A stretch of 20,707 nucleotides of DNA from a virus (Duplodnaviria > Heunggongvirae > Uroviricota > Caudoviricetes), in IMG/VR virus record IMGVR_UViG_3300022752_000033, positions 81,711-102,417 of that record; one strand, given 5' to 3'. A program made the position numbers and the translations under genes. Every line of letters begins with the position of its first letter. Position 1 is the first letter of the stretch. The notes below the pieces were generated by a model, which was not told the origin of the DNA, did not search any database, and was given only the letters and a program-made list of their open reading frames with translations. Below, one piece after another: positions 1 to 20,041 of the stretch.

Positions 1-2077
1 CCCATGTTGCAAATGTAACCGCAGATAAATTAAATGCCTTCATTGTGAACGATTCCAACGGTCGTGTTATTGTTGGTGTCTGCGTTGGTGTACTTGTTTT
101 TGTTGGTGTTTGAGTTGGAGTGCTTGTTTTTGTTTGGGTTGGTGTTTTGGTAGTTGTTGGTGTTGGTGTCTGGCTTGCAGGAATACATCCCGCCGGACTA
201 CCAAATATTCTTTGTATATTTAAAACATTTGAGTTTGAACTTAATGTGTTATCATCTCTATCGTATTTAAAACAAGATTGTATAATACCACCATTATTAG
301 AATTGATAGTCCCATAGAAATAAATTCCGGGTAACAAATCAATCGTTCCAAATATTAAATTGTCTGAGGTATAATGTTCCAAAGATGTTGAAACATCAAT
401 CAATACTCTTGTTGTAGGACACTCCAAAGTTGGGTCAAGGTATTCAAATGTTGCTCTTGCAGATATACCGACTTTATTTGGTGGTGTTGTTGTAGGTGTT
501 GGAGTAACTGTTGGTGTCGGTGTTTGCGAAGAATTAAATATTGAAAAATTCATTCCAACGTTATATACCGGACTATTTGATGGTGTTGGAGTTACAAAAT
601 TATATGTAAATGTAAAACTAACGGCACTTTGAGGAACAAGATTAGTCGGTGTTGGTGTTACAGGAAAATCGCAATCAAAATATGCAACAAAATCAAATGT
701 TTCACAATTAACCGGCGGTGTTGGTGTAGTACAAATCCCTCCAACAAATATATTACTATCCAAATCCGGACAATTAGAATAACAAGGTCTCTTACCTTGC
801 AAAGAACAAACACCACCCAAAGATGTACTTAAACACCATTCATTATTAGTATAATATATTAACCCATTATTAACACTATCCCCTGTATAATATAACCTAC
901 CGTTATAATTAGTTAGTGTTGAACTGTATGTACCATTAAATCCCGTTAAAGAAATTAATTTAGTATCAAAACAAAAATTGGTATATTCACAAGGTAAAGG
1001 TGTTGGTGATGGTGTTGGAGTGATTGTTGGTGTTGGTCTTGGAGTTTGTGTCGGTGTTGGTGTTGGTTCACAAAAATCACAACTTTTAAACTGAGGCGAC
1101 CCTAAATAAGTTCCGCCCGCCCCTCCGAACTCCAAAAATGAATAACAAATTCCGTTATCAACATATGTGGCACCTAAGAAAGCAGTATCTGAATCAACAT
1201 TATAATAATGTACGGTTCCATCCGAACATCTATACATCACCGCAGATTGAATTGTTGTCCTAGGACATATATTATCAAAACAATCCGAAGCCAAAGTAAA
1301 CGTAACTCCGTTTCCATCATATAGTAATCCAACACCAGTGTATGTAACTATTGTCGCACATCCCTCAAATTCACCAAGACCTTGAATATAATAAGTTGCC
1401 CCGGTTGTTGATGGAATACCATTTCCCGCAAATCTAAAAACATTGTTTCCGTCCTCACAACTTCTAAATTGTGTTTGTCTTAACCCTGAAGGGGTAATAC
1501 TAGGTGTAACCGTTTTAGTTGGAGTATTTGTTGGGGTGGCAGTTTTTGTTGGTGTTTGTGTTTTAGTTGGCGTATTAGTTGCGGTATTTGTTGGTGTTTG
1601 TGTTTTAGTTGGTGTTTGTGTTTTAGTTGGCGTATTAGTTGTAGTTTTTGTTGGTGTTTGAGTTTTAGTTGGTGTTACAGTTTTTGTTGGTGTAACACTT
1701 TTTGTTGGAGTCCTTGTGTTTGTTGGTGTTTGAGTTAAAGTAGGAGTGTTGCTCGCAGTATTGGTTGGGGTTTGGGTTAACGTAGCAGTATTGGTTGGGG
1801 TTTGGGTTAATGTTGGCGTGGGTGTCGGAGTTTGAAAACAAGTCGAAATGGCAATGACGACACTATCACTATCCGTTTGATAACAACTCGTTCCCCCTAT
1901 GGTATAGTCAGAATAAAACCCTGATTTATTCCTTACACTACATATTGAATCTATATATAAAATACTACCAACAACCAAGGGGGTTGTGTCAGAGTAAAAA
2001 CCACTAGTTGACGATAACGAACAAGCGTCTTGACAACTGGTTTCAACATACGATAATTTAATTGGAATACAAGGCAT
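1..2077 (-). CDS. Cys-rich, Pro/Thr-repeat (mucin-like) modular protein, >=692 aa, 3' end outside the window; putative tail fibre/virion surface protein
   Basis: Manual translation from ATG at 2077 is open down to position 2 ([19 protein letters not shown]...[10 protein letters not shown]...SAVTFATW). Thr/Pro tracts alternate with Cys-rich globular segments (26 Cys counted). It is absent from the ORF track because there is no stop inside the window. The VGV-rich plus-strand ORFs are its antisense shadow. The function is inferred. Confidence 0.9.
1548..1676. repeat. ~60-nt-period tandem duplication in the Thr/Pro tract
   Basis: GTTGGTGTTTGTGTTTTAGTTGGCGTATTAGTTG (34 nt) is exact at 1548-1581 and 1608-1641, with degenerate similarity continuing. 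Confidence 0.85.
1755..1810. repeat. 30-nt-period tandem duplication in the Thr/Pro tract
   Basis: GCAGTATTGGTTGGGGTTTGGGTTAA is exact at 1755-1780 and 1785-1810 (encodes LTQTPTNTA twice). Confidence 0.9.
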
Positions 2078-2096
2078 AAATGTTTGCTATTATCTT

Positions 2097-2105
2097 ATAA
2101 ATAAT
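2097..2105 (-). promoter_or_regulatory. TATTTAT(A) upstream motif, putative late promoter
   Basis: The coding strand reads AAATTATTTATAAG about 20 nt upstream of ATG 2077. The same core precedes three other starts. A second copy, TATTTATTTATA, lies near 2184-2195. Confidence 0.5.
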
Positions 2106-2205
2106 TTGAAATCGGTTTTATTTTTACTAAAATAATAAAACCTCAAATTTTTTTATAAACAAACAATTAAAAATAATTTAGATATAAATAAATAACCCAC
2201 CATAA

Positions 2206-2463
2206 CTATGGTATTGGGCTCGTGCATAAGACATCACTTAGTAATTCACAATCAAGAGAATCAACAATTTTAACTCTAATTAAAGGAACATTTATGTAGG
2301 TATTTGTAAATGCGGATGGGACTTCAATAAAAATATCAGGAGGAGCTGTTTGGGTGAATGCCGTTAAAAATAATGAATTATTTCCATATATATCACTAAT
2401 CGTAATAGAATATGGTGGGGTACCACCCGAAAATTCAGTTAATTTTATTATCGGTATATTCAC
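2206..2463 (-). CDS. Small protein resembling a single SprB-like repeat (85 aa)
   Basis: SGGTPPYSITISDIYGNN...VKIVDSLDC parallels the repeat QGGTPPYTYTLIYPDGNN...VIDSVGC in the upstream 716-aa protein. GTG start lies 6 nt after the upstream stop. Confidence 0.75.
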   Translation of the reverse strand: MNIPIIKLTEFSGGTPPYSITISDIYGNNSLFLTAFTQTAPPDIFIEVPSAFTNTYINVPLIRVKIVDSLDCELLSDVLCTSPIP

Positions 2464-2469: not shown

Positions 2470-4620
2470 TTAACTTAAACAATTTATTTCATAATCAATT
2501 AATAAATAAACTTTAATATTAATTGCCGCGATTGTACCATTAACAATATCTTGGTTATCAATATCACTTATAATAACTAACTTATTATTTAATTCATCAA
2601 TGATAACATTACCAACACCCTTAACTTTTAAAATCATTGATTTAATTGTATCCTGCCAAATATTATCACTTGGAGGCACAACCAATGAATTTGTAACATA
2701 AAAAGGTTCAATAACTTCAGTCCCGTATGGTTGTACCACCAATTTAGCACTGAATGTTGCAGATACTAAATTACAACCACTATTCCCATTAGTAACATCA
2801 TAATACCCCTCATTAAACATTTTTAGAATACTGTATTTTGCCGATGTATTAACATTAAACGTTTCCTCCGAAACTGTATATGTACTATAAGAAGAAATTG
2901 TGTTACTACCTTCAACCGTAACACTTCTTTCCGCATAATTTGAATTTGCATCAACTAAGGTCAATGTATATGTTCCGGCGGTTAAATTTTCCACCATATT
3001 TGTTTGTGGGTTATTTGGAATATTTGACGACCAATTAAACGTAAACGGAGGAACCCCCGCCATAATAAATGTTGTTATCGTACCCCCACTCGGTGTAGAC
3101 GCTATTGTCGGTAGCAAAGAAAAATTCACATTTGGTATATCTGTAACATACTCATTTGTTTTTTGTATACAACCATTATTATCGGTAACTGTAATATTAT
3201 ATTGACCCGACACGATATTTGTAAAGGTTACAGAACTTAAATAAGTGTTTAATATATCTATTTGTCCGTTATTTAACGAATAATTGTATGGGGCTGTACC
3301 ACCACTAGATATTGTTACCGTTATAGACCCATTTGCCAACCCAAATCTCGCACCAATTGAAGACGCGGATACAGTATATAGATTTTGACTAACTAACGTA
3401 TAATCCTGATTAAACGTGCAACCAACACTATCAATAACATATAGAGAATGTTCTCCACCACCCAAAAAAGAAAATAAATTATTTTGAGAGGTAGTTTGAA
3501 TTGATTTGTTATTCCCATCAGGGTAAATTAAAGTATATGTATATGGTGGAGTCCCTCCTTGTAAAAAAACAAACATTGACCCATTTTCATTAGAGCATCC
3601 CGGATTTGTCACATTAACATTTACCGATGTCATACCCTCAGGGGTCGCCAATAATGCAGATGCGGTTGCCGTACAATAAGCGGCATCCGTAACCAATAAT
3701 GAATAAGGCCCTGAAGATAAATCAGTTAATGTTAAACTAGTTGAATATGAAATCTCAAAATACCCGGTTGACGCCGAATAATAATAAGGTGGCGTACCTC
3801 CTTCAATATAAAAAGTTAAAGACCCATTATTTGTTAAACATGATGGCGGAACTGGTGTAACCAACGGTATAGTAACCGGACCAACATCTGTGATTGTCGC
3901 GGCAGATATCCTAGTACAACCCAAAGAGTCGGTTACATTAACACTATATAAACCACTCGTTAATCCCGTAATTGAACTACTCGTTTGTCCGTTACTCCAT
4001 ATATAAGTATATGGTGGAGTTCCGGTTTGTCCCGTAACAAATATCTTACCTAACGGCCCATTCCCACAACTTGAATTTGGAACAACATATAAACCATAAT
4101 CCAAATTTGTTGAAGGTTCAACTACAAAAGTATTAGTTCTACCCGTACATCCCCCTACATCCAAAACAACCATATAATAAGTTCCCGCTGTTAAATTGTT
4201 AAACACCCCAAAACTTGAATCCGTTATTGCCGACGATATAAAGTCGTTAGACCCACTATATAAAAAATAAGTTGTTTGTGAATATAATGATGATGAAGTA
4301 CCTGTTACCGAACCATTATTTAAACCACAAGTTGTATTCTGCACGTTATCTACATAAGCACAAACACCACTCGATAATGGTACAGACACCAATAAAGTAT
4401 TGTTTATAGGTAAACTACTATCGGTTATTTGAATCGAATATGTTCCGGAGTACAATAAAGTTCTCGATGAGTTGGTTACCAAAGCGTCATTACCTAAATC
4501 CGGTGTGAGCCAATTAACATTATATGGTGGGGTCCCACCATTAGGAACTATTAGAATACTTCCATCACCCGTACCCGAACAATCACCAACAACCGATATC
4601 GAATAAAACAAACTAGCCAT
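2470..4620 (-). CDS. SprB-repeat-containing protein (716 aa), putative adhesin/receptor-binding structural protein
   Basis: About 7 repeats of the form C..GS(I/V)....GGTPPY.Y.W/L....L..G.Y.V.V.D..GC (e.g. GTPPYTYIWSNGQTSSSITGLTSGLYSVNVTDSLGC) match the SprB repeat (PF13573) pattern. No signal peptide or obvious T9SS C-terminal domain is visible. Confidence 0.85.
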   Translation of the reverse strand: MASLFYSISVVGDCSGTGDGSILIVPNGGTPPYNVNWLTPDLGNDALVTNSSRTLLYSGTYSIQITDSSLPINNTLLVSVPLSSGVCAYVDNVQNTTCGLNNGSVTGTSSSLYSQTTYFLYSGSNDFISSAITDSSFGVFNNLTAGTYYMVVLDVGGCTGRTNTFVVEPSTNLDYGLYVVPNSSCGNGPLGKIFVTGQTGTPPYTYIWSNGQTSSSITGLTSGLYSVNVTDSLGCTRISAATITDVGPVTIPLVTPVPPSCLTNNGSLTFYIEGGTPPYYYSASTGYFEISYSTSLTLTDLSSGPYSLLVTDAAYCTATASALLATPEGMTSVNVNVTNPGCSNENGSMFVFLQGGTPPYTYTLIYPDGNNKSIQTTSQNNLFSFLGGGEHSLYVIDSVGCTFNQDYTLVSQNLYTVSASSIGARFGLANGSITVTISSGGTAPYNYSLNNGQIDILNTYLSSVTFTNIVSGQYNITVTDNNGCIQKTNEYVTDIPNVNFSLLPTIASTPSGGTITTFIMAGVPPFTFNWSSNIPNNPQTNMVENLTAGTYTLTLVDANSNYAERSVTVEGSNTISSYSTYTVSEETFNVNTSAKYSILKMFNEGYYDVTNGNSGCNLVSATFSAKLVVQPYGTEVIEPFYVTNSLVVPPSDNIWQDTIKSMILKVKGVGNVIIDELNNKLVIISDIDNQDIVNGTIAAINIKVYLLIDYEINCLS

Positions 4621-4623: not shown

Positions 4624-7605
4624 TTAACAATTTACATTTATATTTATACCAACTTCTAACTTTAATAATTGTGACAAATAGAGCGGTTGGTTGGTTAGGT
4701 TTATAATTGTTAAGTCATTTCCATTTAAATTAAACCATAAATTATAATTTAATAATTGAGGTAAACTATTCTTTAACGCCAATTTCCATTCTCCATCACT
4801 TGGGTATCCATTAAGACCAACACCACTATAAAACTTATAATTAATCAATAAATTACTACCAATCGTCAAATTAACATACCACTCTGTAGTTAAACTATTA
4901 ATACCATTACAACTTGTAGTCGTGTATCCGTTTGATTGTAATAAAGTTCCAACTTGATTTCTCAATATTGCACTAAAGGATGATAATGCAGATTTTTGTG
5001 TTAACCACGGATATATCGGTACTGTTATTTTTTCCTCATTCGCACCATAATTTGATAAACTTGCAGTTCTAGAACAAGGGTCTACAAATTTTTCCTCAAT
5101 CGCACAACCTCTTTGTCTCCTATAAACGAATTTTTGTCTATGTAATACAGAATTTTCAAACCTCGTACCTCCCTGCCAAATCGTAGTTGCCGGAATCATT
5201 TGTTCCACCAATTTCATCCAATCAGGGCCAAGTCCATTTACATAATCAATAAGTTTTTGATACGTGTATTTATTATTTTGTGTCCCCGTATTTTGATATT
5301 GTTGTATATATTTCCAAAATAAAGATTGTAATGTTGGATATCCCCCGGTTTTTCCGTCCGTAATAAACTGACGATTTCTTGTGTTTATTAAATTTTGCCA
5401 AAAAGTTTGATTAAATTCAAAAAAAGTTTTGTTTTGTGGTTCGGGGTCAATAACCGTAGAATCCACACCACCCGGTACAGGGTATCCAATAGTTAAACCT
5501 GATTCGGGAATTGGGTATCCATATTTTCTTGATTGTTCCCAAATCTCATATGCCAATCCTTGACCCGGATTTAAAAACAAATCGATATTTTTTATATTGA
5601 GAACCAATTTTTCATTATTGATAAAATAATATGAATTGTAATTTGCATCTTTTGATGCCCTTAATTTATCATCTGTTGATATCCAAGATTTATTATTATC
5701 AATAATTCTGTCTAACCTAAAACCCTCATTCATATAAGGGAATTTTTTAAACACATTTAAATAGTCCTCACCATATGTGAATGGTTTTAATTGTGTTTGT
5801 ATATCTGTGTTTTGTCCCGAATATAATCTACTATTTATAACAAGTTCCTCGTTGTTTCTATGTTGTGGTGTTTGTTCGTACCATCCTGCACCTTTTTGGA
5901 AAAAGTAACTATCAGTTTCCGCAGGTGCCTTTGGATAACCAAATTCATCCACAGGATAATCTTTTCTTGTTAAAGTAACACTTTCGTATAAAGATTGATT
6001 TGTAAATGCCGTAAAGGTTTGTCCTTTAAGTTTATACGTTTGACCCACTTGCAATTGGGGTATTTGATTGACATATGTTCCTCCGGTTATTTGTGCGTAT
6101 TGATAATAGAAGTAATCCATATCAACCTCTCTATCCGCAACCTCTATATGCTCGTTATATTCAATTAACGACTCAGGAGCACCAATTAAATTTAATAAAA
6201 ATTCAATAGACCTCCTTGTTCCTTTTGACCTAAAAATATACCCTGAATTAAGTATTAAGTTTCTGTAAAAAGAATAGTTTAATTCTTGTGAGGTCAACGC
6301 CCTCGTATAACCAGGGTAGTTAGGTTTTACCTGAGCCCCAAATATTGTCTCTAAAAAATTATCATTTGTAATGGGTGAAAAATTTGACTGCCAACCAAGA
6401 GTCGACGCCAAATCTTTTAAAAGTTCGTTTGGTATATCATTTGACGGGTTGTAGTTAACCGATGTCATAAAACTTAATCCATCAATATATTTTTTAATGT
6501 CGTCAAAACTAACACCATAAATTTGGAATACCTTTTCAACTTTTCTCCCTAGAGTATCAAACTCTTTTAATGAACCCGCAGTTAAAAACCTCGAGATTAA
6601 ATTCGTTTTAAATGAATCAAATGCCTCACCGACCTCTTGTAGTATTGTTATATAATCATCAAATACCGCATTTCTAATATCTAGATTCCACGCCCCGTCT
6701 TTAGGCCATGTAACTTTTTGATTATTAATTGTTATTTTCCCATTATCTTGCTCTTGGGGTACTTTAAAGACCGCAGTATACTCCGGAATTACCAACCTAT
6801 TTAATAGAAAATTCTCAATCTCATCAAAAGTTTCCGCAAATACCTTATCAACAATATAGTCGTTAGGTCTAATTTGAAAATTTGTTGTGGATGTTGTTGC
6901 CGTAGTTCCAAATGGTGCCCCTGAAACATAAAATGCTATGTACCCAGAATATAACGCATCCGAGGGTAAAAAAGACTGAACCTTATATTCTAACCCTCCT
7001 ATTGATATCGCATAATCCAAATAAGTATTTGGTAAATTTCTATACTGAGAAATTGACATCTCCCTTCTAGCAATGTTTTGAGATGCATTTGTTGTATAAT
7101 CTATCTCAAATGGATTAAACAATCTTTTAGTATCCACCTCAAAATATGTTTCATCATTAATAGAATTATATGATATATTAACCGCCGTTGACCCGGTTGT
7201 AAAATCGGGTGTAAAGAACAAAGAATCTAAAGATGCCGGAAAATAATTAATTATTTTTGTTATTGATATTGCAAATCGTTTTGACAACGAACCATATAAA
7301 GCAAAATTCAATACTTGCGAATTATCAAATACAGGATAAACTTTAAATTGAGTTTTTTGTATTACCTTACTCTGAGCTATACTCGTTATGTTTAAATCCT
7401 CTAAATTAACCGGAGCAGAAAAAGCACCAATACCAAATTTTCTATTAACCTTATCTACAACATTTGAGGTAAACTCAAAGTTACCTTGCGTAAGTCCTCC
7501 ACCATCAACAATTTGTAAACCAACAATATTGTCGGAAAATGTTCCGGCACCGCTTCCGGGTCTGGGAGGATAAAAATATTTAGTATTTTTTATAGTTGTT
7601 GCCAT
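4624..7605 (-). CDS. Baseplate wedge protein with P2 gpI / T4 gp7-like core (993 aa)
   Basis: The central motif IPNELLKDLASTLGW...FYRNLILNSGYIFRSKGTRRSIEFLLNLIG (6181-6435) matches the L..LA..LG...KGT..(S/A)I...L pattern of gpI/gp7-type wedge proteins. It lies in a gp25/gp6 operon. Confidence 0.7.
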   Translation of the reverse strand: MATTIKNTKYFYPPRPGSGAGTFSDNIVGLQIVDGGGLTQGNFEFTSNVVDKVNRKFGIGAFSAPVNLEDLNITSIAQSKVIQKTQFKVYPVFDNSQVLNFALYGSLSKRFAISITKIINYFPASLDSLFFTPDFTTGSTAVNISYNSINDETYFEVDTKRLFNPFEIDYTTNASQNIARREMSISQYRNLPNTYLDYAISIGGLEYKVQSFLPSDALYSGYIAFYVSGAPFGTTATTSTTNFQIRPNDYIVDKVFAETFDEIENFLLNRLVIPEYTAVFKVPQEQDNGKITINNQKVTWPKDGAWNLDIRNAVFDDYITILQEVGEAFDSFKTNLISRFLTAGSLKEFDTLGRKVEKVFQIYGVSFDDIKKYIDGLSFMTSVNYNPSNDIPNELLKDLASTLGWQSNFSPITNDNFLETIFGAQVKPNYPGYTRALTSQELNYSFYRNLILNSGYIFRSKGTRRSIEFLLNLIGAPESLIEYNEHIEVADREVDMDYFYYQYAQITGGTYVNQIPQLQVGQTYKLKGQTFTAFTNQSLYESVTLTRKDYPVDEFGYPKAPAETDSYFFQKGAGWYEQTPQHRNNEELVINSRLYSGQNTDIQTQLKPFTYGEDYLNVFKKFPYMNEGFRLDRIIDNNKSWISTDDKLRASKDANYNSYYFINNEKLVLNIKNIDLFLNPGQGLAYEIWEQSRKYGYPIPESGLTIGYPVPGGVDSTVIDPEPQNKTFFEFNQTFWQNLINTRNRQFITDGKTGGYPTLQSLFWKYIQQYQNTGTQNNKYTYQKLIDYVNGLGPDWMKLVEQMIPATTIWQGGTRFENSVLHRQKFVYRRQRGCAIEEKFVDPCSRTASLSNYGANEEKITVPIYPWLTQKSALSSFSAILRNQVGTLLQSNGYTTTSCNGINSLTTEWYVNLTIGSNLLINYKFYSGVGLNGYPSDGEWKLALKNSLPQLLNYNLWFNLNGNDLTIINLTNQPLYLSQLLKLEVGININVNC

Positions 7606-8510
7606 TAAGTAGTTATAGTGTTAAAATTTTTACTGAAATCAATATTCGCCCCTCTACTTTGTCTAACCTCATAAAGAAGTTCGTTAAATTGGTCTCTAAT
7701 TTCAAACAAATTGTATTGTCTAAATATATTATTATTTGAATCGTAAATAGTGTAAACACCATCATCAATAGATTTGGTTTGATTACCGTAAAGAGCAATT
7801 GCCAATGTATCAATGTCGTATTCCGCCATTTGAATATCTATCGTAATAGGATTAAAAAATGTATTGGTTATGATTATGTCTTGTCCCGGCTGACCTATAA
7901 ATGGTGTTGCGTTTGGTTTGTTTGTTGGTGATGACGATGGTGATACCGTAACAAATAATAAATTTGAAATTCCATCAACATATCTATATCTAATTGATTT
8001 TTGTGATGTATTTGTTTGATTCACAACAACCGGTTCACAAAAAAAACATGAAGTAATTATCCTAAAAAAATTACTTATTTTACTTCCATCAAAATTAAGA
8101 TACTCAATTCTAAACCCAACCAATCCTTGTGGAACAAATTTGTTAAGATACTGAGATGGAACGTTTGCCAAATCAATAATAAGTCCCTTCACATTCGGTA
8201 ACGCACTTAAGATACCACAATCCGTAATTAAAGTCCTTATTTGTGCCGGTCTTAAATATAAAGTATAAAACCCTAAAGCATTAAATTCCTCCGCAGGTAA
8301 AGTTAAATTATACAACCCACCGAGTATCTCATTATTATTCCCACCTGTTTGAGAATTATTAAAATATGGTTTTAATAATGAGGTCGCATCCAATGTTTTA
8401 AGGACAAAATTATTGGTGACATCCCTTGATGGGGTATAATTCATTATTATCTCCACATCTTCAGGACTAACGTCCGCAGGCTTTAAAGTCCCATAAGTTC
8501 CAATACTCAT
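7605..8510 (-). CDS. Hypothetical protein, likely virion structural (301 aa)
   Basis: Long ORF with a TAATG overlap into the next gene and a conserved upstream motif. No recognisable domain. Confidence 0.8.
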   Translation of the reverse strand: MSIGTYGTLKPADVSPEDVEIIMNYTPSRDVTNNFVLKTLDATSLLKPYFNNSQTGGNNNEILGGLYNLTLPAEEFNALGFYTLYLRPAQIRTLITDCGILSALPNVKGLIIDLANVPSQYLNKFVPQGLVGFRIEYLNFDGSKISNFFRIITSCFFCEPVVVNQTNTSQKSIRYRYVDGISNLLFVTVSPSSSPTNKPNATPFIGQPGQDIIITNTFFNPITIDIQMAEYDIDTLAIALYGNQTKSIDDGVYTIYDSNNNIFRQYNLFEIRDQFNELLYEVRQSRGANIDFSKNFNTITT

Positions 8511-9623: not shown

Positions 9624-10423
9624 TAAACTAAAGGGGGGTTTACATATTCATACCACGATATGGGTGTATTAATACCGACTCTTTTATTTGTTAATATATC
9701 ATAAACTGAATAGTTTAAATTAACATAATCGCAAACAACCCGGTAATAATAAAATGTTAGGGTATCAAAATAATATTTATCCCCATTAACCGATGACTGT
9801 GGTTTATTCATCATCTTAACAAATTCACCCTTCTCCGCATTATAAAATTTTGCGGTCATATAAAAAGTATTGATTGGAACATACTCCAATTTCTTTAACC
9901 AATAAATAAAAAATCCTTCCTTATCCCCAACATAATCTAACTTAAAACTTGGTATTTTTATATTAACATTTTTATTTGCAACAATAAAACTAATTGTTGC
10001 CCCTTGTTGCGTCGGTATAATTATTGTGAAATAATTCACCTGAGATTTTGTATCAACCGAATCATAAAAGTCCAACTTAAAAAATGACTTGGTAAAATTA
10101 TTTCTAAAATAATATATGTCCTCACTTGTGAAACCCTCTGATATATAATTTTGATTCCACGACGCAGGATTACTTAACGACCCACCAGAATAAAAATAAA
10201 AATCATAATTAATATCCGTCTTTAACGTTAATGGGTCGGGAGCATGCGGAAATCTATTAACCTCAAAATCAATGCCAGTACCGACAACTTCTTTAACCAC
10301 CTCATCCTCATATAAATCTATAGATTGGTCTTGACCCGTGAAATCCCACTTAATCTCAACAGGTAAAGTAATTTCCCTGTCGGTTGACCCACTAAATAAT
10401 ATTCTATAACTATTCGCAATCAT
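9623..10423 (-). CDS. Hypothetical protein, likely virion structural (266 aa from ATG 10423)
   Basis: Long ORF that overlaps the upstream stop by 14 nt and ends in a TAATG junction. ATG 10423 is preferred over TTG 10426. Confidence 0.8.
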   Translation of the reverse strand: MIANSYRILFSGSTDREITLPVEIKWDFTGQDQSIDLYEDEVVKEVVGTGIDFEVNRFPHAPDPLTLKTDINYDFYFYSGGSLSNPASWNQNYISEGFTSEDIYYFRNNFTKSFFKLDFYDSVDTKSQVNYFTIIIPTQQGATISFIVANKNVNIKIPSFKLDYVGDKEGFFIYWLKKLEYVPINTFYMTAKFYNAEKGEFVKMMNKPQSSVNGDKYYFDTLTFYYYRVVCDYVNLNYSVYDILTNKRVGINTPISWYEYVNPPLV

Positions 10424-12125: not shown

Positions 12126-15100
12126 CTCCTAAAAATTTAACTCTAAATTTATCCAAGGCATTACTACCTCTCGTTAAACCAAAATAAAAATGAAATGGCG
12201 CTCCCACTAAATACTTTAAATTCGTATTAGTATTTGGAAGAGGTCCAACCACGTTTTCACTAAAATCATATCCACCCGTATTATTCGCCCTAACATTATA
12301 TATAAATCCTTTATAAAATTCATTTATCGCAGTTTCACCCATAAAATAATAGGAATTAACATCTACCCTATCTAATGATTGATATCTCGTATTTTGTATA
12401 ATATCTTTTAATCCGGTTTGCCATTCATTTTTTTGGTCGCCAAAAATAAATGTAGACTGTTGATTAGGTGCTCCATTAATTTTCCATCTATAAAACGGTA
12501 CGACTTGTGAACTAAACCCTAAATTATCGTATTGTGCCGGTGAAGTTGTATCGTTTCTTATTATCCTTCTTGGGGTTATATAATCTCTTGTTTGAGTGTC
12601 CGAGGAATAAAATATCCCCATAACTTTATCCCCAATATAATAAGTGTTTCCACCGGTAGTTGTTCCCGTTGAATAGTCATACGAATCAAAATCAAACTCA
12701 TCCACACCATGTTCCGAGTTAACCGAAATAGATTGTGCGTAATCACCATCAAACCTGCTATTATTTCTTGAGAAGAATTGTGCCACACTTCCAGAACCTG
12801 TTCTTGTTAAATTACTGAAAAATCCTGAAGTTCTTAATCGAGATATTAAAAATAAATTTAATATATTTTCAAATTCCTTATACGATGTTTGTTCCATTTT
12901 ATCAACATTATATCCGTAATAATCCGCACTTAATGTTAACTGATATGCAAATTCATCTCTAGGACCTAAATTCATTATTGTTGTTGGGGTTTGTAATTGT
13001 AACGAATTTCTACCATTTCTTCTCACAGTGGTTCCTCCTTGAGATGTTGGGGCTTTACCAACAAATTTAATCTCCCCTGTAGTCGCATTTAAATTTGTTG
13101 GTGATGACCTATAATAAAAATTACTAGATGGGTTATGTAATATTATAGTATCATTACAATATCTATTATAAGGTTGATTTCTTCCCGCGCCTGTATTTCT
13201 AAAGAACCTATTGTTTTTAAATGTGTAAAAAAATAATGTACCATTTATCCAATTATTAACAAAATTATGTGAAAATATTCCTCTACAACTTGCCATCATA
13301 ACTCTAAATCTCGCCAACCACTCGGCAAATGTTCTATAATCTCTTGGTAAAGTAAGAAATGGTGCACCTCTTAAAAGAATGTAACAACCATTTTCCGCAA
13401 TAACTCTATCGTAACACTTATCTGTCGTAGGAGCCAGTCTAAATGTACTTCCATATCCCTGATAACATTTTAAAGGAACAATACCACTACAAGAAAATGA
13501 AGATTGTAATGAATTTTCAAATTCACTTGGTTCATCCTCTTGGTTATCTCCTGAATTATATCCGGTAGATTGTAATTCTCCTGAACCAATAATCGATGAC
13601 CCATTATCCGTAATACTATAAATTGCCAACGACCTATTTTGATGTAATACAAACGTATTATTCTCATATACATCTGTTCTATTTGATGATGATGGTAACC
13701 TATCACACCTCATCACAAGTCTCGTCTCCGAGCTTGAGAATGTTGTTGGAGTCGCACCTGTCGCATAAACCGGAGAAAAATAATAATAATCATTTTGTTT
13801 AATAATAGGATAAGTCACTACACCCCCCAATGTAGGTATAAAAGCCGAGTTCTCAGAAGATTGGTTTAAATAAACATAACTACCCCCCTCAACATATTCA
13901 TTATTATAATAACCTCTATGCTGTTTTGCGGGTCCTATGTCAGTTAAAACAAGATAATTGTTTGGATTGACTGAACTACTATACGCACCGGAATTAACAA
14001 ATCCCGGAGAATTTGATGATGGCACCTGACTTCCTAACCTTGGATATCTAATGAAATTAACAACATTATTTGGTCCCACACCTAAATACGAAGTATTATT
14101 ACTTACCCAAAGACTTTGTAGTTTCGTATTATTAGTAGTACTCTGATTAGTTGTATCAATACTAAAACTATTAACACTACTCCCATCTAAACTAGAATAG
14201 TTTGATGTGTTATATGTTGTAAACCCACTAAAATCACTAGACGTATTATAACAATACGGCGGATAAAATATATACCCGTTTTGACTTTGCGTGTTTGGTG
14301 AATTTATTCGATTATGTCTTGGTAAAGACAATCCCGGTTGTACCGGTATATTCATCTTATAATTACCGGAAACAATATTAGTCCCATAATTTTGACCCAT
14401 TAATTTTGAAATATCAATATCCATAGGAACTCTCGCAGAATATGGGTCAACGCCACGCATTAAAAATACAACAATAAATTCTTTTTGGTCTGGCATCGTA
14501 TATATTGGCCTAAACGTATCATCAGTATCATAATATTCCCCATCTCGAAATCCTAAAGTTGTGGTGAATTTTTTACTCCAAACGGTTTGAAAGTTATCTG
14601 TATATCTATATTTTAGTGAATTGAAAAATGGTATTGCTGGATTATTATATTTTCCATTAGGGATGGTAGGGTTTTGTGTAACAAAACTACCATACGTCGT
14701 CGCAGTAATTACTTGGAAATATTCAATATCAGTTGGAAACTTATGAGTAATAAAATGTTTATTACTATTAGGGGTATTCGCCGGAACAAACTCAGTATAG
14801 TTCGCCAAAATTGGTAAATTATTTGCCGGCGGGACATCAAAATTTAAAAATATATTACCCGTATTATATTCAACCGTTCCGGTTCCTCCTAAATTACTTG
14901 TTATCACCCCATTAGAATTATCCGTAAACGTCTCCGTAAATCCACTTATAGTTTGAGCGTAAACCACTAAAGTACCTTTTAATAATAAAGTATTTAATGA
15001 CAAACTAAAAACGGTATTTGAATCGTCACCATATTCTCCGGTTTGATATCCAACATTATCTTTAGTAGAAAAATCAATTGCAGAACTTTGGTCAACAGAA

Positions 15101-17646
15101 TATGTTGTAGTTAATGGTGTTAAATTGTTAGAGTTGGCCGGGTCCGCATATTTTATAGTTACAGAACCATTATTTGTTGCTGTACCCGTTATCGCATTTG
15201 TGGTAACAACATTACCATCTATATCAACATAACTAATTGTTTTTCCACTCAACACATTTAAATCATATGTCTCCGAAATATTATTGAAAGATATTAACCC
15301 TCCAATAGGAAAATTGTCAAGACAAGAATTATCAATCAATAATGCCATAACATTATCATGATGAAACTTTCCTGGATTTTGCTGAGGATTAATCGAAACT
15401 TTGATTTGATTATCTCCACCCCCCTGAACTTGTAAGTCATTAAAATATTTTCCCTTTAAATTAAATAAATTTAACCTCTCCGACAATGTTAAATCTTGAG
15501 AAAAGAACCCATTAGGTGCAGTACTATTGGTTGCCAAGTTTGGTGTTCTTTTTGAATACGATTCCTTCATTGAACCCGATAAATTTTGTTGCATCAGTTG
15601 TGCCACCAAATCAGCTTGATTTGCGGGTGCAAATAAATTATTACAAGGTGCGGACCCAACCCCCAATAAAAGAGGGTCATCTTTACAATATTGTTCGTCC
15701 GCAACATTAGCAAAACTTGCGGCGGATTGAGTATCTATAGTACAAGATTGAGATGCATTTGCATATGTCTCGTTAAAAAATTCTTCAGCTTCTGCATCAC
15801 CCTCTATAGGCTCAGGAGTACAATCACACATCTCACATTCAGGGTAGGTAATCATTGGAAATTTCATATTACTAAACGGATTACCCGCCTTTCTCCATAT
15901 CTCCCCGGGAGACATAGGTCTCGGACAATTTAAATCCGCCAACCCAAAAGATATCACATTTACAGCTTGACATAAAAGCCAAATAATTGGTAATATTACT
16001 GTGAAAATAATTACAATTTGTACTTTTATAATCGGCCATATTAATCTTAATAAATGTAATATAGGTACCAACGACAAAATTGGTGTCGTAAAAATACCCA
16101 AAATAAAATTAAATAATGTAAACAATATGTCCGTACCCCTAACCCCATCATTCATTGGAAACTTATAACTACTACTCTCACAACTCTGATTTTGAATATC
16201 TTTTATCCCAATAAATCTTCTTCTATTTGTACCTTTTTGATATAGGTCAATTAATTGTGAAACAGTATAAACTTGGTTATATTTTAACTCATAAAATTTA
16301 TCCTCACAATCAATCGCCCTTTGTATTATTTTATTACCTAAAGTTGTTCCAGTATCCCCATAATCATTCCAATCCAAACTAAAACCATACGACCTAATAC
16401 ACGCATCATAATATGGTTTTTCTGCAGGATTAGTTGGATTTAAATTTGCCGGGTCTTTCCCAGACCCCCAACCATATTCACTAACATTTGGAACTAAATA
16501 GTACGCCCTCTTTATTTGTTGTCCCAAATCATCCGGTTGTTTCCATTTAATTTTAAACCTATATTTACCCTTTGTTGGTATACCTACCTTTGGGTCGTCA
16601 GATATTACTTTTTCACCGAATTCATTAGTAATAACATAATCTAAGTTCATCGGCAAATCAACCAACCATGAACCATCATCCTCAATCACGTCATTACCAC
16701 CCGGAAATTTAAATTCTTCCAATATAGGTCTTCCTTGATTATCAATATTGATTGTTTGTCTAATACATACAATTTGTCCCGGACCCGCAACCAAACTACA
16801 CATCTCACCCAAAGCTTTCCTAGGCTTACACCTTCGATTAATAAAATTTTGGTCTAACGTTGATGTCATCGAACCCATAAAAAGTCCTGTAGGTTGGATA
16901 TCAATATTTAACTCGTCCCTTAAATCAAAATCACATCTGCTTATTGCAATTTGACAAGTTTCTTGGTCTCCCCATAATGGTACAACATCTATAGATTTTG
17001 TTAATGAAACAATTTGAGGTAACGAATTTAAATTAGTAGAAGACTTAAACTTAGGACCATTCACTTGAGATTCGGTCGCCCTACCCATTCTAATCAAATC
17101 TTGAGGAGTTAATGAAAATTCTCCCATGTCAGATAAATCTAAATCAAGAAAAACCAAACTAACTCCAAGAGGAGCTCCCATAATCATATAGTCACCACTC
17201 TCATTAGTCTTTACGACATATTTGTAATATTTGTCGTATATTTCAATGGCAGTTTTATTTGTTAATGCATCTCTTCTTGATGGGAATGTTCCTGTGGGTG
17301 TATGACCCGCATGTGATTGTTCGTATGGTAATAGATTATATCTATATCCATCCTCATTTTTCTCGTCCGGAGTTGTATACGGATATATACTCGTTATTAA
17401 AGGATTTGATTTGTCTTGGTCTGTAATTGGTACGAATACTGAAACTCGAGCGTTAGGTATTCCAAACCCATTGTTTGCAGTTATTCTTCCAACAATAACA
17501 CCATAACCAGAACATGATTTGGTGTAAATCTCTTCTTGCTGTATTTTTAATGATAGAATCTCTAAAAAATCAAAATCTTGTTCTAATTCAATATCAATTC
17601 TTTTATTAATTCCTATTTCAGTTCTTATTCTTTGGGTGGTTCCCAT
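12112..17646 (-). CDS. Large baseplate-associated protein (1844 aa) with predicted hydrophobic helical hairpin
   Basis: First gene after gp6. The N-terminal YGVIVGRITANNGFGIPNARVSVFVP resembles carboxypeptidase-regulatory-like beta domains. A hydrophobic stretch spans aa ~507-569, followed by YPECEMCDC. The remainder is S/T/N/G-rich. Confidence 0.8.
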   Translation of the reverse strand: MGTTQRIRTEIGINKRIDIELEQDFDFLEILSLKIQQEEIYTKSCSGYGVIVGRITANNGFGIPNARVSVFVPITDQDKSNPLITSIYPYTTPDEKNEDGYRYNLLPYEQSHAGHTPTGTFPSRRDALTNKTAIEIYDKYYKYVVKTNESGDYMIMGAPLGVSLVFLDLDLSDMGEFSLTPQDLIRMGRATESQVNGPKFKSSTNLNSLPQIVSLTKSIDVVPLWGDQETCQIAISRCDFDLRDELNIDIQPTGLFMGSMTSTLDQNFINRRCKPRKALGEMCSLVAGPGQIVCIRQTINIDNQGRPILEEFKFPGGNDVIEDDGSWLVDLPMNLDYVITNEFGEKVISDDPKVGIPTKGKYRFKIKWKQPDDLGQQIKRAYYLVPNVSEYGWGSGKDPANLNPTNPAEKPYYDACIRSYGFSLDWNDYGDTGTTLGNKIIQRAIDCEDKFYELKYNQVYTVSQLIDLYQKGTNRRRFIGIKDIQNQSCESSSYKFPMNDGVRGTDILFTLFNFILGIFTTPILSLVPILHLLRLIWPIIKVQIVIIFTVILPIIWLLCQAVNVISFGLADLNCPRPMSPGEIWRKAGNPFSNMKFPMITYPECEMCDCTPEPIEGDAEAEEFFNETYANASQSCTIDTQSAASFANVADEQYCKDDPLLLGVGSAPCNNLFAPANQADLVAQLMQQNLSGSMKESYSKRTPNLATNSTAPNGFFSQDLTLSERLNLFNLKGKYFNDLQVQGGGDNQIKVSINPQQNPGKFHHDNVMALLIDNSCLDNFPIGGLISFNNISETYDLNVLSGKTISYVDIDGNVVTTNAITGTATNNGSVTIKYADPANSNNLTPLTTTYSVDQSSAIDFSTKDNVGYQTGEYGDDSNTVFSLSLNTLLLKGTLVVYAQTISGFTETFTDNSNGVITSNLGGTGTVEYNTGNIFLNFDVPPANNLPILANYTEFVPANTPNSNKHFITHKFPTDIEYFQVITATTYGSFVTQNPTIPNGKYNNPAIPFFNSLKYRYTDNFQTVWSKKFTTTLGFRDGEYYDTDDTFRPIYTMPDQKEFIVVFLMRGVDPYSARVPMDIDISKLMGQNYGTNIVSGNYKMNIPVQPGLSLPRHNRINSPNTQSQNGYIFYPPYCYNTSSDFSGFTTYNTSNYSSLDGSSVNSFSIDTTNQSTTNNTKLQSLWVSNNTSYLGVGPNNVVNFIRYPRLGSQVPSSNSPGFVNSGAYSSSVNPNNYLVLTDIGPAKQHRGYYNNEYVEGGSYVYLNQSSENSAFIPTLGGVVTYPIIKQNDYYYFSPVYATGATPTTFSSSETRLVMRCDRLPSSSNRTDVYENNTFVLHQNRSLAIYSITDNGSSIIGSGELQSTGYNSGDNQEDEPSEFENSLQSSFSCSGIVPLKCYQGYGSTFRLAPTTDKCYDRVIAENGCYILLRGAPFLTLPRDYRTFAEWLARFRVMMASCRGIFSHNFVNNWINGTLFFYTFKNNRFFRNTGAGRNQPYNRYCNDTIILHNPSSNFYYRSSPTNLNATTGEIKFVGKAPTSQGGTTVRRNGRNSLQLQTPTTIMNLGPRDEFAYQLTLSADYYGYNVDKMEQTSYKEFENILNLFLISRLRTSGFFSNLTRTGSGSVAQFFSRNNSRFDGDYAQSISVNSEHGVDEFDFDSYDYSTGTTTGGNTYYIGDKVMGIFYSSDTQTRDYITPRRIIRNDTTSPAQYDNLGFSSQVVPFYRWKINGAPNQQSTFIFGDQKNEWQTGLKDIIQNTRYQSLDRVDVNSYYFMGETAINEFYKGFIYNVRANNTGGYDFSENVVGPLPNTNTNLKYLVGAPFHFYFGLTRGSNALDKFRVKFLGVETI

Positions 17647-17650
17647 TATA

Positions 17651-17670
17651 CTTTTTTTAATAAATAGTTT
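17651..17670 (-). promoter_or_regulatory. AAACTATTTATTAAAAAAAG upstream motif, putative late promoter
   Basis: Lies 4 nt upstream of ATG 17646 and nearly duplicates 8517-8535. Confidence 0.6.
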
Positions 17671-17732
17671 AGGGCAAACTTTTAAAGTTACACCAACTTA
17701 AAAAATAGTATAAAAATTAATTAAATAAATTA

Positions 17733-19568
17733 TTACGAAAAACTAACCGACTGAAAATTCTTTACTGAGACCCTAATATCTTTATTTGGAAATCTTATTT
17801 GATAAACCTGACTCGGTTCGGCAAATAATGTGTCATCCACAGTTCTAATTTCTCTTGTCTCAGAATCTAAATAAGACATTGACGTTTCCGCAGATGAATA
17901 TTGACCTCCAACATTATTGAAAACTTGTAAATCCGTAACGGTTATAACTCCATTTTGACTTTGAATTAAACCTTTTATCTCAGAAAGAAAAACATTTTGA
18001 CCCAATTGTCTTGATGCTGGGTCCATATAATTTGATATGTTATTAATAATCTCAGTAATAATTTGTCCTGAATTTTGTGTTGCCTCTAATACTACCGAAA
18101 CTGTCATGGATAAATCAATTACGTCAGCACTTTTAACTGAGATATAATCATTCATCATTCTATAGTTGGATAAATAATTTGCAATATTTTGTTTTAGAGT
18201 GTTTGAAACTACGCTCGTTAACTTACCAGTAGTATCAAAAGATAAAATTTGAATATCTATTTTATTATCTATTTCCGTAATCGCAACTTTTGCAGGTGCC
18301 CCGAATTGTGCCGGCATAGTTCTTAAAAGAGAATCGTAATCCTGAACCGTAACCGCCCTTTTTTGTGCGGCAAAATTAAAAGAAACAAAATTTCTAACTT
18401 CTTCAGTTGTAGGAGCATTAGAACCACCAACCGCAGCAGTCACGTTATTACATCTTAAAGAACCAACAACAGACGTATTTGTTGCCTCCGAAGGTCCATT
18501 AACAAAAAATGAAACCGTACCTATTTGATTGATAACGTTTACCCCTAAATTAGTTTGCAAACCACCACCAATCCTATATTGTATAAATAATGTTGAATTA
18601 GGTGTTAACGTAGAACCAAGAGAAAAGTTATTAAAATATGTTTGCAAATTGAGTGGATTACCAAACCCTGTAAATTGGTTTAATGATTCCTGAGCCGAAT
18701 TTGTTCCTCCACCAAAAACCATTCTTTTATACCCCTCAGGTGTAAACTCAGAAATGAATCTATTATTTGTTTGAATATACTTACCAACTTTAGTGCCCGG
18801 TTGGTCGGAAACTTTTGTAGGGTCTTCAACAAATACTCTATCTTCCGCCAAAGCGTCTACTTCATACCATCTATTTTGAGCCCCTAAAAATTCCGCAGTA
18901 GTTGGTATATTACCATAGTCAGTACCATTTTTCAATAACACGCTTGTAATACCTAAAACATTTTTCTCAGGTAAAAATAACTCAAAGAAAGGTCTAACAT
19001 CACCAGCATTTATAATTCTCTTATAAACTTTTGTAATACCATTAACAACCAACTCTCGTTTTGTTATTGTATAATTTATTAAAACATTATTACTATTGAA
19101 GTTAGGTATCTTTAATCTATTGGGATATCCTTGAGAATTGTATGGACTAGCAAAATCTATGTCGTACACATTTTCAAATGCTTGTCCCGCACCTTGTATC
19201 TGTGAACCACGATACAAAATTCCAAGATATCTTTCATCCTCCTTATCCCCAAACGCAGGAACGGTTATTGAAAAATCAACAAGAGATACTGACGGTCTTA
19301 ATCCGGGAATCTTTAACCCATAGGTTCTGGCAATATTATATATTGAAGATTTTTGCTGAGCGTAAAGTAATACGGTTTCCTGTATACTCCTATCAATATG
19401 ATAGTGTAAGTTATCCGCAACCGCAGCGTTTAAATCCAAGAAAACTGAGAATACCGAAGCATCACTAAAATCTTGAATTAAATCGGGGTAATAAGCACGA
19501 ACATAATTATAAAGTTCCAACCTTATTCCTTCAAAATCCCTAACTGTATATGATATTTTTTTTGCCAT
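17733..19568 (-). CDS. gp6: Baseplate wedge subunit, T4 gp6 / baseplate J-like (611 aa)
   Basis: The N-terminal RDFEGIRLEL...FSDASVFSVFLDLNAAVADNLHYHID and the AAVGG...TTEEVR...FAAQKRAVTVQDY motifs are typical of gp6/J-family wedge proteins. It is adjacent to a gp25-like gene. Confidence 0.88.
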   Translation of the reverse strand: MAKKISYTVRDFEGIRLELYNYVRAYYPDLIQDFSDASVFSVFLDLNAAVADNLHYHIDRSIQETVLLYAQQKSSIYNIARTYGLKIPGLRPSVSLVDFSITVPAFGDKEDERYLGILYRGSQIQGAGQAFENVYDIDFASPYNSQGYPNRLKIPNFNSNNVLINYTITKRELVVNGITKVYKRIINAGDVRPFFELFLPEKNVLGITSVLLKNGTDYGNIPTTAEFLGAQNRWYEVDALAEDRVFVEDPTKVSDQPGTKVGKYIQTNNRFISEFTPEGYKRMVFGGGTNSAQESLNQFTGFGNPLNLQTYFNNFSLGSTLTPNSTLFIQYRIGGGLQTNLGVNVINQIGTVSFFVNGPSEATNTSVVGSLRCNNVTAAVGGSNAPTTEEVRNFVSFNFAAQKRAVTVQDYDSLLRTMPAQFGAPAKVAITEIDNKIDIQILSFDTTGKLTSVVSNTLKQNIANYLSNYRMMNDYISVKSADVIDLSMTVSVVLEATQNSGQIITEIINNISNYMDPASRQLGQNVFLSEIKGLIQSQNGVITVTDLQVFNNVGGQYSSAETSMSYLDSETREIRTVDDTLFAEPSQVYQIRFPNKDIRVSVKNFQSVSFS

Positions 19569-19573
19569 TATTA

Positions 19574-20041
19574 TTAAATATTTATTATTACAAAATCACT
19601 TTGAGAGAAGGTTGAAGAGTCTGTAGAATAATCAATCCTAATTTTTGCCGTATAGTCCGCAGTACCTTTACCCGGTACTCTAAAAATATATGGTAATTCG
19701 TCAGATTTTATATTTTGAGCCCCAATTGGACCTTCATCCTCAATACTCGCCGGTTCTATCGTTATACTATTAACAATTAAATTCGGCATAAAAGAATTTA
19801 TCGCGTCTCTAATATCTGTCTCTATTGCACTAAAAGTTAAATTATCAAAAGGTTCAAATATAAATTCATATATTCTTGTACCAAATGTTGGTAAATAATA
19901 ACGACTACCTCTTCTAGTTAAAATTAAATGTAATAGTGCAGCTCTAACTTCATCTTTTTGGAATTCCGTTAATTGTAAATAATCTCCTTTTCTAGAATCT
20001 CTAAACGGAAAATTTATACCATATGTTATACCTTCTGCCAT
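19574..20041 (-). CDS. gp25: Baseplate wedge subunit, GPW/gp25 family (155 aa)
   Basis: YGINFPF...VRAALLHLILTRRGSRYYLPTFGTRIYEFIFEP...IRDAINSFMPNLIVNSITIE is the gp25-family pattern, and the size fits. Confidence 0.9.
   Translation of the reverse strand: MAEGITYGINFPFRDSRKGDYLQLTEFQKDEVRAALLHLILTRRGSRYYLPTFGTRIYEFIFEPFDNLTFSAIETDIRDAINSFMPNLIVNSITIEPASIEDEGPIGAQNIKSDELPYIFRVPGKGTADYTAKIRIDYSTDSSTFSQSDFVIINI

Follow-up and report, generated by a model that had tools for sequence, protein, structure and literature searches.

How does a phage in which only two baseplate wedge proteins are recognisable build the rest of its adsorption apparatus? The question is raised by a 20,707-nt stretch of DNA (hereafter the window), which ends a 102-kb viral contig obtained from lake water and recorded in IMG/VR (completeness, 35%). 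Apart from the two wedge proteins, its products belong to no family that can be recognised, and where T4 has its fibre genes there are proteins with adhesin-like repeats. In our reading, the window carries the operon for the baseplate and adsorption organ of a freshwater jumbo myovirus that is uncultured and distantly related to T4. We give this explanation as a whole a probability of roughly 0.7 and infer the roles of the genes after gp6 from where they lie, how well they are conserved and a weak likeness of fold. A preliminary description, made from the sequence alone, had seen a T4-like baseplate core extended by adhesin-type proteins. Its observations are real in part and mostly hold, and its interpretation, that host-type adhesin modules replace the canonical T4 fibres, is partly supported. 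The features are as follows.

19574..20041, minus strand: gp25-like baseplate wedge protein, 155 aa (PF04965, phrog_261)
17733..19568, minus strand: gp6/Baseplate_J-like wedge protein, 611 aa (PF04865, phrog_219)
12112..17646, minus strand: 1844-aa conserved giant protein, clade-specific, directly after gp6
16897..17514, minus strand: carboxypeptidase-regulatory/transthyretin-like beta-sandwich with insertion, residues ~45-250 of the 1844-aa protein
15931..16131, minus strand: conserved hydrophobic, membrane-like stretch, residues 506-572 of the 1844-aa protein (Kyte-Doolittle)
10410..12125, minus strand: 571-aa conserved protein, no family
9623..10426, minus strand: 267-aa conserved protein, no family
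8547..9623, minus strand: 358-aa conserved protein, possible PKD-like unit at residues ~98-151
7605..8510, minus strand: 301-aa protein, no family, the most conserved of the block
4624..7605, minus strand: 993-aa protein, candidate gp7-type wedge partner with outward C-terminal domain
4627..5049, minus strand: C-terminal alpha/beta domain of the 993-aa protein (residues ~853-993), common to the SprB protein
2470..4620, minus strand: 716-aa SprB-repeat protein, about seven Ig-like units and then a C-terminal domain as in the 993-aa protein (PF13573)
2206..2463, minus strand: 85-aa protein with one SprB-like motif (PF13573)
2..2077, minus strand: first 692 residues of a 1173-aa Pro/Thr-linker, Cys-rich "beads-on-a-string" protein (sequence read directly)

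All ORFs of at least 155 aa between positions 2 and 20041 lie on the minus strand, and the junctions of the block either overlap or leave gaps of at most 128 nt, as the preliminary description had it when it spoke of co-oriented, tightly coupled genes. No intergenic terminator-like sites were found in the block, nor any promoter or terminator enrichment. The gp25 and gp6 genes recognised earlier were both confirmed. The gp25 protein matched PF04965 (GPW_gp25) in Pfam with 39.5 bits (cut-off, 27.2; E, 4.9e-10), and in PHROGs it matched phrog_261 (E, 2.6e-16) as well as phrog_43. The gp6 protein exceeded the Pfam cut-off for PF04865 (Baseplate_J; 23.6 versus 21.1 bits), matched phrog_219 (E, 1.4e-19) and aligned with T4 gp6 by hhalign over 264 columns with 67% probability. 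On these sequence matches, the two can be identified as contractile-tail wedge proteins. Homologues of gp6 had 77-100% identity among the matches listed (median of 75% across 82 loci), falling to about 25-27%, over 98-99% of the length, in the nearest isolates.

The genes following gp6 come in the order 1844-571-267-358-301-993-SprB, and the first six, the long unassigned genes of the preliminary description, are real ORFs without a family, kept in 80-82 related loci. The block was syntenic in the 82 fetched loci, and the 301-aa protein is encoded by 487 IMG/VR stretches. The arrangement is not peculiar to this contig but standard across a very large clade of lake phages, which are abundant, large and never cultured and have T4 as a distant relative. 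In two of the loci (L002 and L003), a gp25 gene of 151-156 aa occupies the same position and genes for DnaB, RNR and a 5'-3' exonuclease are found upstream.

Wedge proteins of the gp25 and gp6 type are present in all contractile injection systems, and the same block might in principle belong to a bacterial extracellular contractile injection system, a tailocin or a prophage remnant. The contig itself, a fragment, has neither capsid nor sheath genes. However, of five relatives having this block, four carry a Gp23-type capsid gene (E, about 1e-63) and all five an ORF of ~1070 aa with a Phage_sheath_1 domain (E, 3e-8; 30.2 bits, just below the 31.4-bit cut-off), and the locus is therefore that of a phage rather than of an injection system or a chromosome, in agreement with the viral classification of the contig in IMG/VR and with the replication genes upstream in L002 and L003. 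Furthermore, in a scan of 185,579 species genomes, the 301-aa gene appeared only on one stray 3.9-kb contig. Taken together, the viral contig, the capsid gene of the relatives, the replication genes and the near-absence from the species genomes effectively refute this reading, which we consider extremely improbable. Membership in the T4-like class, judged by gp23-type capsid and sheath genes, appears from the relatives only, the contig of the window being a fragment.

In T4, the inner wedge is composed of gp25, gp53, (gp6)2 and gp7, and gp8-gp12 are peripheral (structures such as 5IV5). The window resembles T4 in its gp25 and gp6 homologues and in having seven structural genes after gp6, and the clade relatives do so in the contractile tail and gp23-type capsid. 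It differs in that gp25 adjoins gp6, no gp7-gp12 family is detectable, the proteins after gp6 have other sizes, and the places of gp12 and wac are taken by SprB-repeat and Pro/Thr-linker proteins. An alternative reading, for which the equal gene number speaks, is that nothing has been replaced and that the seven genes are diverged orthologues of gp7, gp8, gp9, gp10, gp11, gp12 and wac. Baseplate proteins diverge fast, those of even the nearest isolates match no PHROG, and both the capsid and the sheath of the relatives are of T4-like type. Nevertheless, the sizes do not correspond (1844, 571, 267, 358, 301, 993 and 716 aa, against 1032, 334, 288, 602, 219, 527 and 487 aa in T4), no ORF matched a gp8-gp12 family in Pfam or PHROGs at E <= 0.01, with the same result for gp7, and hhalign against single T4 sequences gave probabilities of at most 1% for gp8-gp12 and no signal for gp7. 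The two folded proteins (the 993-aa protein and the N-terminal half of the 1844-aa one) have other folds and do not resemble gp8-gp12. This fold result covers these two only; the 571-, 267-, 358- and 301-aa proteins and the C-terminal half of the giant could have diverged folds of the gp8-gp11 type. With the 1844-aa N-terminal half being carboxypeptidase-regulatory/pilin-like and the 716-aa protein built of SprB repeats, unlike gp12 or wac, we regard orthology throughout as unlikely.

We favor instead a periphery in which the clade-specific, strongly conserved 1844-, 571-, 267-, 358- and 301-aa proteins would form the intermediate and outer baseplate and, with different folds that are in part adhesin-like, take over what gp8-gp11 do in T4. 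The 571-, 267- and 358-aa proteins were found in 82/82 loci with median identities of 56%, 54% and 55.5%, respectively. The first had no Pfam, PHROG or PDB-profile match and the second no credible match in searches that included Pfam and PHROGs. The third had been called PKD-like, a weakly supported label for a possible unit: PKD_4 reached only an E of 0.24 here (11.9 bits; cut-off, 27), and of 14 orthologues two matched PKD_4 and a third matched PKD (best E, 0.003-0.007). Its W116-G-D-G motif and H134 are invariant. The 301-aa protein, with a median identity of 80% (74-90%) in 82 loci, had no PDB-profile match and none in five reference phage genomes.

The 1844-aa protein has at least 1799 homologues, none of them named or with Pfam domains; median identity among the syntenic loci is 41%, with invariant residues (C604, C607 and C609 among them; H531 is near-invariant) spread over the whole length. 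Fold searches with its folded N-terminal half retrieved carboxypeptidase-regulatory/pilin-like beta-sandwiches, and the assignment of a CarboxypepD_reg/transthyretin-like sandwich at the N terminus has both a fold match covering the domain and a profile match. Its hydrophobic stretch (Kyte-Doolittle 19-residue mean of up to 2.7) was at the same position in 9/9 sampled homologues, is a single helix at 507-565 in the AF2 model and has no equivalent in the other proteins of the block.

This giant could itself be the gp7 counterpart, resembling the giant gp7 of cyanophages, and the 993-aa protein could be a fibre or an adaptor anchored by its conserved N terminus. The giant immediately follows gp6, as does gp7 in T4 and in the T4-like cyanophage P-SSM2 (Kyanoviridae), whose order is gp25-gp6-gp7 (5195 aa)-gp8 and which likewise has a large genome and an aquatic habitat; T4 gp7, too, has a hydrophobic stretch (879-907) and bears a predicted membrane domain in its annotation, and fibres, like the 993-aa family, typically combine a conserved N-terminal part with a variable C-terminal one. 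On the other hand, profiles of the N-terminal 860 residues of the 1844-aa protein and of the 993-aa protein found no match in T4 or P-SSM2, including their gp7 and the gp8 of the latter, and the gp6 of P-SSM2 aligned over only 47% of the length with 22% identity. No baseplate chain was among the matches listed for the N-terminal half of the giant, and the full-length protein had no tblastn match in the phage collection.

A further comparison is with the nearest gp6 proteins, those of Flavobacterium phage vB_FspM_immuto, Microcystis phage Mel-JY01 and the uncultured 484-kb phage LR756508, the baseplate proteins of which are likewise unannotated. All three encode a homologue of the 993-aa protein (1265-1404 aa) two to three genes past gp25-gp6, and gp25, gp6 and this protein are the only ones of those tested that they share with the window. 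In contrast, profiles of the 1844-aa N-terminal half (860 residues) and of the 571-, 267-, 358-, 301-aa and SprB proteins had no match near their gp6, nor did the first and the 301-aa profile match anywhere in their whole genomes. We hold the giant as gp7 to be a tentative possibility, and the 993-aa protein to be the likely gp7/gpI counterpart, which with gp25 and a gp6 dimer would make up the inner wedge.

The 993-aa protein (median identity of 62% among syntenic loci) is one of a large family in which the N-terminal part is conserved, whereas the C-terminal ends vary and now and then carry Fib_succ_major, SprB or Sortilin domains; one member matched phrog_37948, "virion structural protein". 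Neither it nor the 1844-aa protein matched gp7/gpI families in Pfam or PHROGs. Its model gave weak fold alignments to gp7/gpI-sized chains, those of the gp7/gpI type having an rmsd of 4.3-6.5 Å and Z inside the background range, so that the earlier label "gp7-like" keeps a weak fold likeness and no sequence or profile match. Compared with the gp7/gpI/TssG wedge proteins of the simple systems (Mu, diffocin, Streptomyces CIS, cyanophage A-1(L) and PhiTE), it is fivefold larger, contains beta domains as insertions and shows no sequence signal.

The adhesin-type modules announced in the preliminary description were found in several proteins, as the beta-sandwiches of the giant and as SprB units. 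The clearest case is the 716-aa protein (full length in 65 loci; median identity of 46.5%), with 92 bits to PF13573 against a cut-off of 28 (E, 1.6e-26; five stretches), at least five tandem repeats, and GGTxPY-type motifs at residues 28, 274, 355 and 440. This Pfam family derives from the SprB gliding-motility adhesin of Flavobacterium johnsoniae. The phage protein shares several tandem copies of the repeat with this adhesin but is not its orthologue, having 716 aa rather than thousands, no C-terminal T9SS sorting domain reported by Pfam (the scan gave only SprB, BiPBP_C and an EMC7 beta-sandwich), and a phage-specific C-terminal end. It may form a short rod of Ig-like units, and the C-terminal domain that it shares with the 993-aa protein suggests the same tip or docking module in both. 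The "single-SprB" label of the 85-aa protein (homologues in 37 loci; identity, about 33%) comes down to a weak match (E, 0.016 over 13 residues) and a GGTPPY motif at residue 13.

The Pro/Thr-rich, Cys-rich ORF, described earlier as mucin-like, is real and runs on to the left of the window; it matched phrog_15511 (E, 1.6e-11) and nothing in Pfam. In about 40 of 44 relatives, the gene next after SprB encodes a Pro/Thr-linker protein (332-1202 aa; Pro/Thr fraction, 0.07-0.62), and strongly variable genes are found only there, downstream of the SprB gene, whose own product is conserved. These products and the SprB-repeat protein might be Hoc-like capsid decoration or non-virion surface proteins that merely adjoin the baseplate genes. 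Many capsids carry Ig-like repeats, the 716-aa protein matched phrog_3945, "Hoc-like head decoration" (E, 4.9e-7), and Hoc-like PHROGs matched two members of the 993-aa family. However, the phrog_3945 match spans 57 residues, one Ig-like unit; the SprB gene begins 3 nt after the 993-aa gene, on the same strand and in the same block, in the loci reaching that far; the two proteins share the C-terminal domain; and it is right at the variable C-terminal ends that 993-aa family members bear SprB or other binding domains. Decoration is thus quite improbable. In the adsorption organ that we propose, the variable Pro/Thr-linker proteins would be long flexible fibres making the first contact and setting host range. 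The signal of peripheral binding would then run through the wedge and set off contraction of the sheath, as it does in other contractile systems. SprB-type units are also present in fibre genes of 986 and 2563 aa, the latter product sharing a 358-aa N-terminal domain with a 1627-aa protein.

The block is the baseplate module of a contractile tail of the T4/cyanophage lineage, with a periphery that is largely unrecognizable. All the ORFs of at least 155 aa between positions 20041 and 2 are on the minus strand, and the ORFs of the block overlap by up to 17 nt or are separated by at most 128 nt. The main features are as follows (window coordinates, except for the last line):

20212-20700, minus strand: 162-aa HNH/endonuclease VII-like ORF (phrog_3322, 1.1e-22), between the upstream genes and gp25
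19574-20041, minus strand: gp25, above the Pfam cut-off (E 4.9e-10)
17733-19568, minus strand: gp6/Baseplate_J, above the Pfam cut-off (phrog_219, 1.4e-19; hhalign to T4 gp6, 67% probability)
15931-16131, minus strand: hydrophobic, membrane-like stretch of ca. 65 residues in the 1844-aa protein (506-572; mean hydropathy reaching 2.7; near-invariant His531)
7605-8510, minus strand: 301-aa protein, the most conserved of the block
2470-4620, minus strand: 716-aa SprB-repeat protein (matched five times by the SprB repeat, with a total of 92 bits)
2-2077, minus strand: Pro/Thr-linker, Cys-rich protein (first 692 residues of a 1173-aa protein)
genome positions 60329-80257: continuation of the operon to the left of the window, with proteins of 257, 83, 215, 2563, 1627, 108, 986 and 725 aa

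The gp6 protein had at least 6955 matches at E ≤ 1e-10. Gp25, gp6, the SprB repeats and the Pro/Thr-linker, Cys-rich ORF had all been pointed out in the preliminary description and are indeed there, but as to its gp7/gpI-like gene, no ORF of the window matched such a family in the Pfam and PHROG scans. Neither the 358-aa protein, labelled “PKD-like” there, nor the 85-aa “single-SprB” one reached the threshold (E 0.24 and 0.016), and they are backed only loosely, the former by conserved motifs and a few orthologue matches and the latter by its motif. The HNH/endonuclease VII-like ORF is probably a homing-endonuclease insertion. In two related loci (L002 and L003), ribonucleotide reductase abuts gp25 with no HNH gene; L002 also has a small DUF5522 ORF there.

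The window (bases 81711-102417) forms the right end of an IMG/VR virus record of 102,417 bp. The GC content is 33%, and the completeness of 35% given by CheckV for the record would put the whole genome at around 300 kb. This contig stops a short distance upstream of gp25, which explains why capsid and sheath genes are missing from it. The same block was found on five related IMG/VR contigs (128-182 kb), four of which encode a protein of ca. 610 aa matching Pfam Gp23 at about 1e-63, and all five an ORF of ca. 1070 aa with a Phage_sheath_1 domain just under the cut-off (E 3e-8). On the 308-kb contig of L002 and the 155-kb contig of L003, genes for a 5′-3′ exonuclease, DnaB and ribonucleotide reductase are located just upstream of gp25. 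When a profile of the 301-aa protein was searched against 185,579 prokaryote species, each represented by one genome, the single match was a 3894-bp contig (CAZGNP010000057.1) in an “Aquiluna” (Actinomycetota) MAG, probably a mis-binned fragment of phage DNA rather than a host call. Thus, the gp23-type capsid and sheath-domain ORF of the relatives, the replication genes upstream and one stray contig among all those species bear out the assignment to a phage, and not to an eCIS or a bacterial chromosome. The MAG contig is at most a weak hint of the host and, being binned with Actinomycetota, would disagree with the Bacteroidota host that had been assumed. The structural genes of this clade are scattered; in one of the related contigs (G001), distances of about 38 kb and 60 kb separate baseplate block, sheath gene and capsid gene, and replication genes lie directly upstream of gp25.

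DNA nearly identical to the window was present in lake and freshwater metagenomes of at least five further studies (2011-2025), with no RNA data set among those listed; by megablast, the window as a whole matched none of 50,697 deposited phage records. This phage group, recurrent in the lake metagenomes of many studies and with its module represented in IMG/VR contigs by the hundreds and in protein clusters by the thousands, has no isolate, and the annotation of its baseplate amounted to gp25 and gp6. The order gp6-1844-571-267-358-301-993-SprB was kept in the 82 loci that we fetched, with median identities of 75% (gp6), 41% (1844 aa), 56% (571 aa), 54% (267 aa), 55.5% (358 aa), 80% (301 aa), 62% (993 aa) and 46.5% (SprB). 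Downstream of the SprB gene, a Pro/Thr-linker protein was found in about 40 of 44 loci, ranging from 332 to 1202 aa with a linker fraction of 0.07 to 0.62 and having little sequence in common with that of the window. Since the order is kept upstream and these proteins vary downstream, the block through the SprB protein looks like fixed machinery, with the variable part starting after it.

Two proteins have to be considered for the place of gp7. The 1844-aa protein directly follows gp6, like T4 gp7 and the 5195-aa gp7 of cyanophage P-SSM2. It had at least 1799 homologues, none of them named, and no similarity to either gp7 or to anything in Flavobacterium phage vB_FspM_immuto, Microcystis phage Mel-JY01 or the uncultured 484-kb LR756508. 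A tblastn search against phages gave no match, and the ESM Atlas nothing usable. Profiles of its N-terminal half and of the 301-aa protein found no match in the five reference phage genomes; one T4 hit in these searches was rejected for its nine stop codons. The 993-aa protein, on the other hand, had a profile that matched ORFs of 1265 aa (immuto), 1337 aa (Mel-JY01) and 1404 aa (LR756508), with E values of 2.5e-5 to 3.3e-15, all located two to three genes after gp6. No match appeared in T4 or P-SSM2, nor in tblastn searches against phages with the 993-aa protein or with residues 1-620 of a distant family member (P0263). Among hhalign comparisons of the module profiles with single T4 gp53 and gp6-gp12, P-SSM2 gp8 and the immuto and Mel-JY01 neighbours, the only links involved gp6 and the 993-aa protein. 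Therefore, besides gp25 and gp6, it is the sole tested component that the module has in common with the nearest known phages, as would be expected if it were the third protein of the conserved wedge triad. We consider it a lead for the gp7 counterpart, with a probability of about one in two.

Against 1.84 billion representatives, the 993-aa profile recovered 1751 relatives at E ≤ 0.001, conserved over the first 500-835 residues and with C-terminal ends that extend the totals up to 3037 aa. Among 36 diverse members, Fib_succ_major, SprB or Sortilin domains appeared in single proteins, and one matched phrog_37948 (“virion structural protein”). The AF2 model (pLDDT 74.7) had no PDB match by Foldseek at E ≤ 0.001; in the AFDB clusters there was one likely homologue (LamG-named, 8.4e-8), other rows being weak. 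The conserved first 68 residues are disordered in the model, which would fit a partner-dependent segment. A predicted complex of two gp6 (residues 1-300) and one 993-aa protein (1-400) scored 0.05, a result from fragments that speaks neither for nor against binding.

The membrane-like stretch of the 1844-aa protein is unusual at a wedge position and may be either a true membrane hairpin or a buried helix. It was in the same place in 9/9 sampled homologues, is followed by an invariant C-x2-C-x-C cluster (Cys604, Cys607 and Cys609) and has no equivalent in other proteins of the block. T4 gp7 has a weaker hydrophobic stretch, and its record mentions a predicted membrane domain. A baseplate giant with a membrane-spanning hairpin, whether the baseplate of this clade is built anchored in the host inner membrane or the wedge protein is inserted into the envelope on firing, is an unlikely though specific reading, and we know of neither behaviour for a wedge-position protein. 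If true, this hairpin, together with clade-specific proteins instead of gp8-gp11, would give one of the commonest lake phage groups a baseplate architecture of its own; the helix is a specific oddity, and the general view of contractile tail function stays the same.

The 571-, 267-, 358- and 301-aa proteins matched no family in the Pfam and PHROG scans, and nothing corresponding to them was found near gp6 in the reference phages. Searches of PDB sequences (phmmer and profile hmmsearch) with these four and the 1844- and 993-aa proteins gave nothing credible, and a PHROG scan of the post-gp6 proteins of immuto, Mel-JY01 and LR756508 assigned no family. PF07880 (gp9/gp10) was not detected in five relatives, although the control genomes gave none either. 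In the ESM Atlas, scores were under 0.8 for the 571-aa protein, and the stored model of the 301-aa protein was poor (pLDDT 0.36). The latter, encoded in 487 IMG/VR stretches, exceeds gp6 in conservation across the clade and has neither a fold lead nor a counterpart in the nearest isolates.

The 716-aa protein has about seven Ig-like units of the SprB type and, after them, a C-terminal domain of ca. 100 residues that resembles the C terminus of the 993-aa protein (hhalign E 1.6e-4, 92 columns). In BFVD, the Foldseek search with the 993-aa model also hit a protein named “SprB repeat” that, at 714 aa, is the size of the 716-aa protein. The Pfam scan found no T9SS sorting domain in it, so it has the repeat in common with gliding adhesins but is not itself one. 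By tblastn, it matched among phages only the huge uncultured LR756502. The 85-, 986- and 2563-aa proteins contain SprB-type units as well. The giant 1627- and 2563-aa fibre proteins have in common an N-terminal domain of 358 aa (62% identity), plausibly for attachment. Within the left-hand continuation of the operon, the 83-aa protein is a paralogue of the 215-aa one (E 5e-11), and the 986-aa protein has a weak Kelch-like match (E 5.8e-4).

We infer that gp25 and two gp6 copies, probably with the 993-aa protein, make up the inner wedge, around which five clade-specific proteins would form the outer baseplate. At the periphery, the 993-aa protein and the SprB rod may display the same terminal domain, and the long, variable Pro/Thr-linker proteins would capture the host, binding then rearranging the wedge and releasing the sheath. 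The preliminary description went too far in having adhesin modules replace the canonical fibres, in making the SprB protein a host-range element and in naming the host. If the layout is right, it provides a parts list for the adsorption organ (inner wedge, five conserved clade-specific proteins, Ig-repeat rod and variable Pro/Thr-linker fibres) and singles out the genes that most probably determine host range, so that linking this “dark” group to hosts and studying its structures becomes practical.

Scans for sigma-70 promoter-like sequences and terminators showed no enrichment, with no intergenic terminator-like sites in the block, and the T4 late-promoter motif TATAAATA was not enriched in the window (7 found versus 6.7 expected). 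One copy (4641-4648, minus strand) precedes the SprB gene start codon by 20 nt, in the last part of the 993-aa gene.
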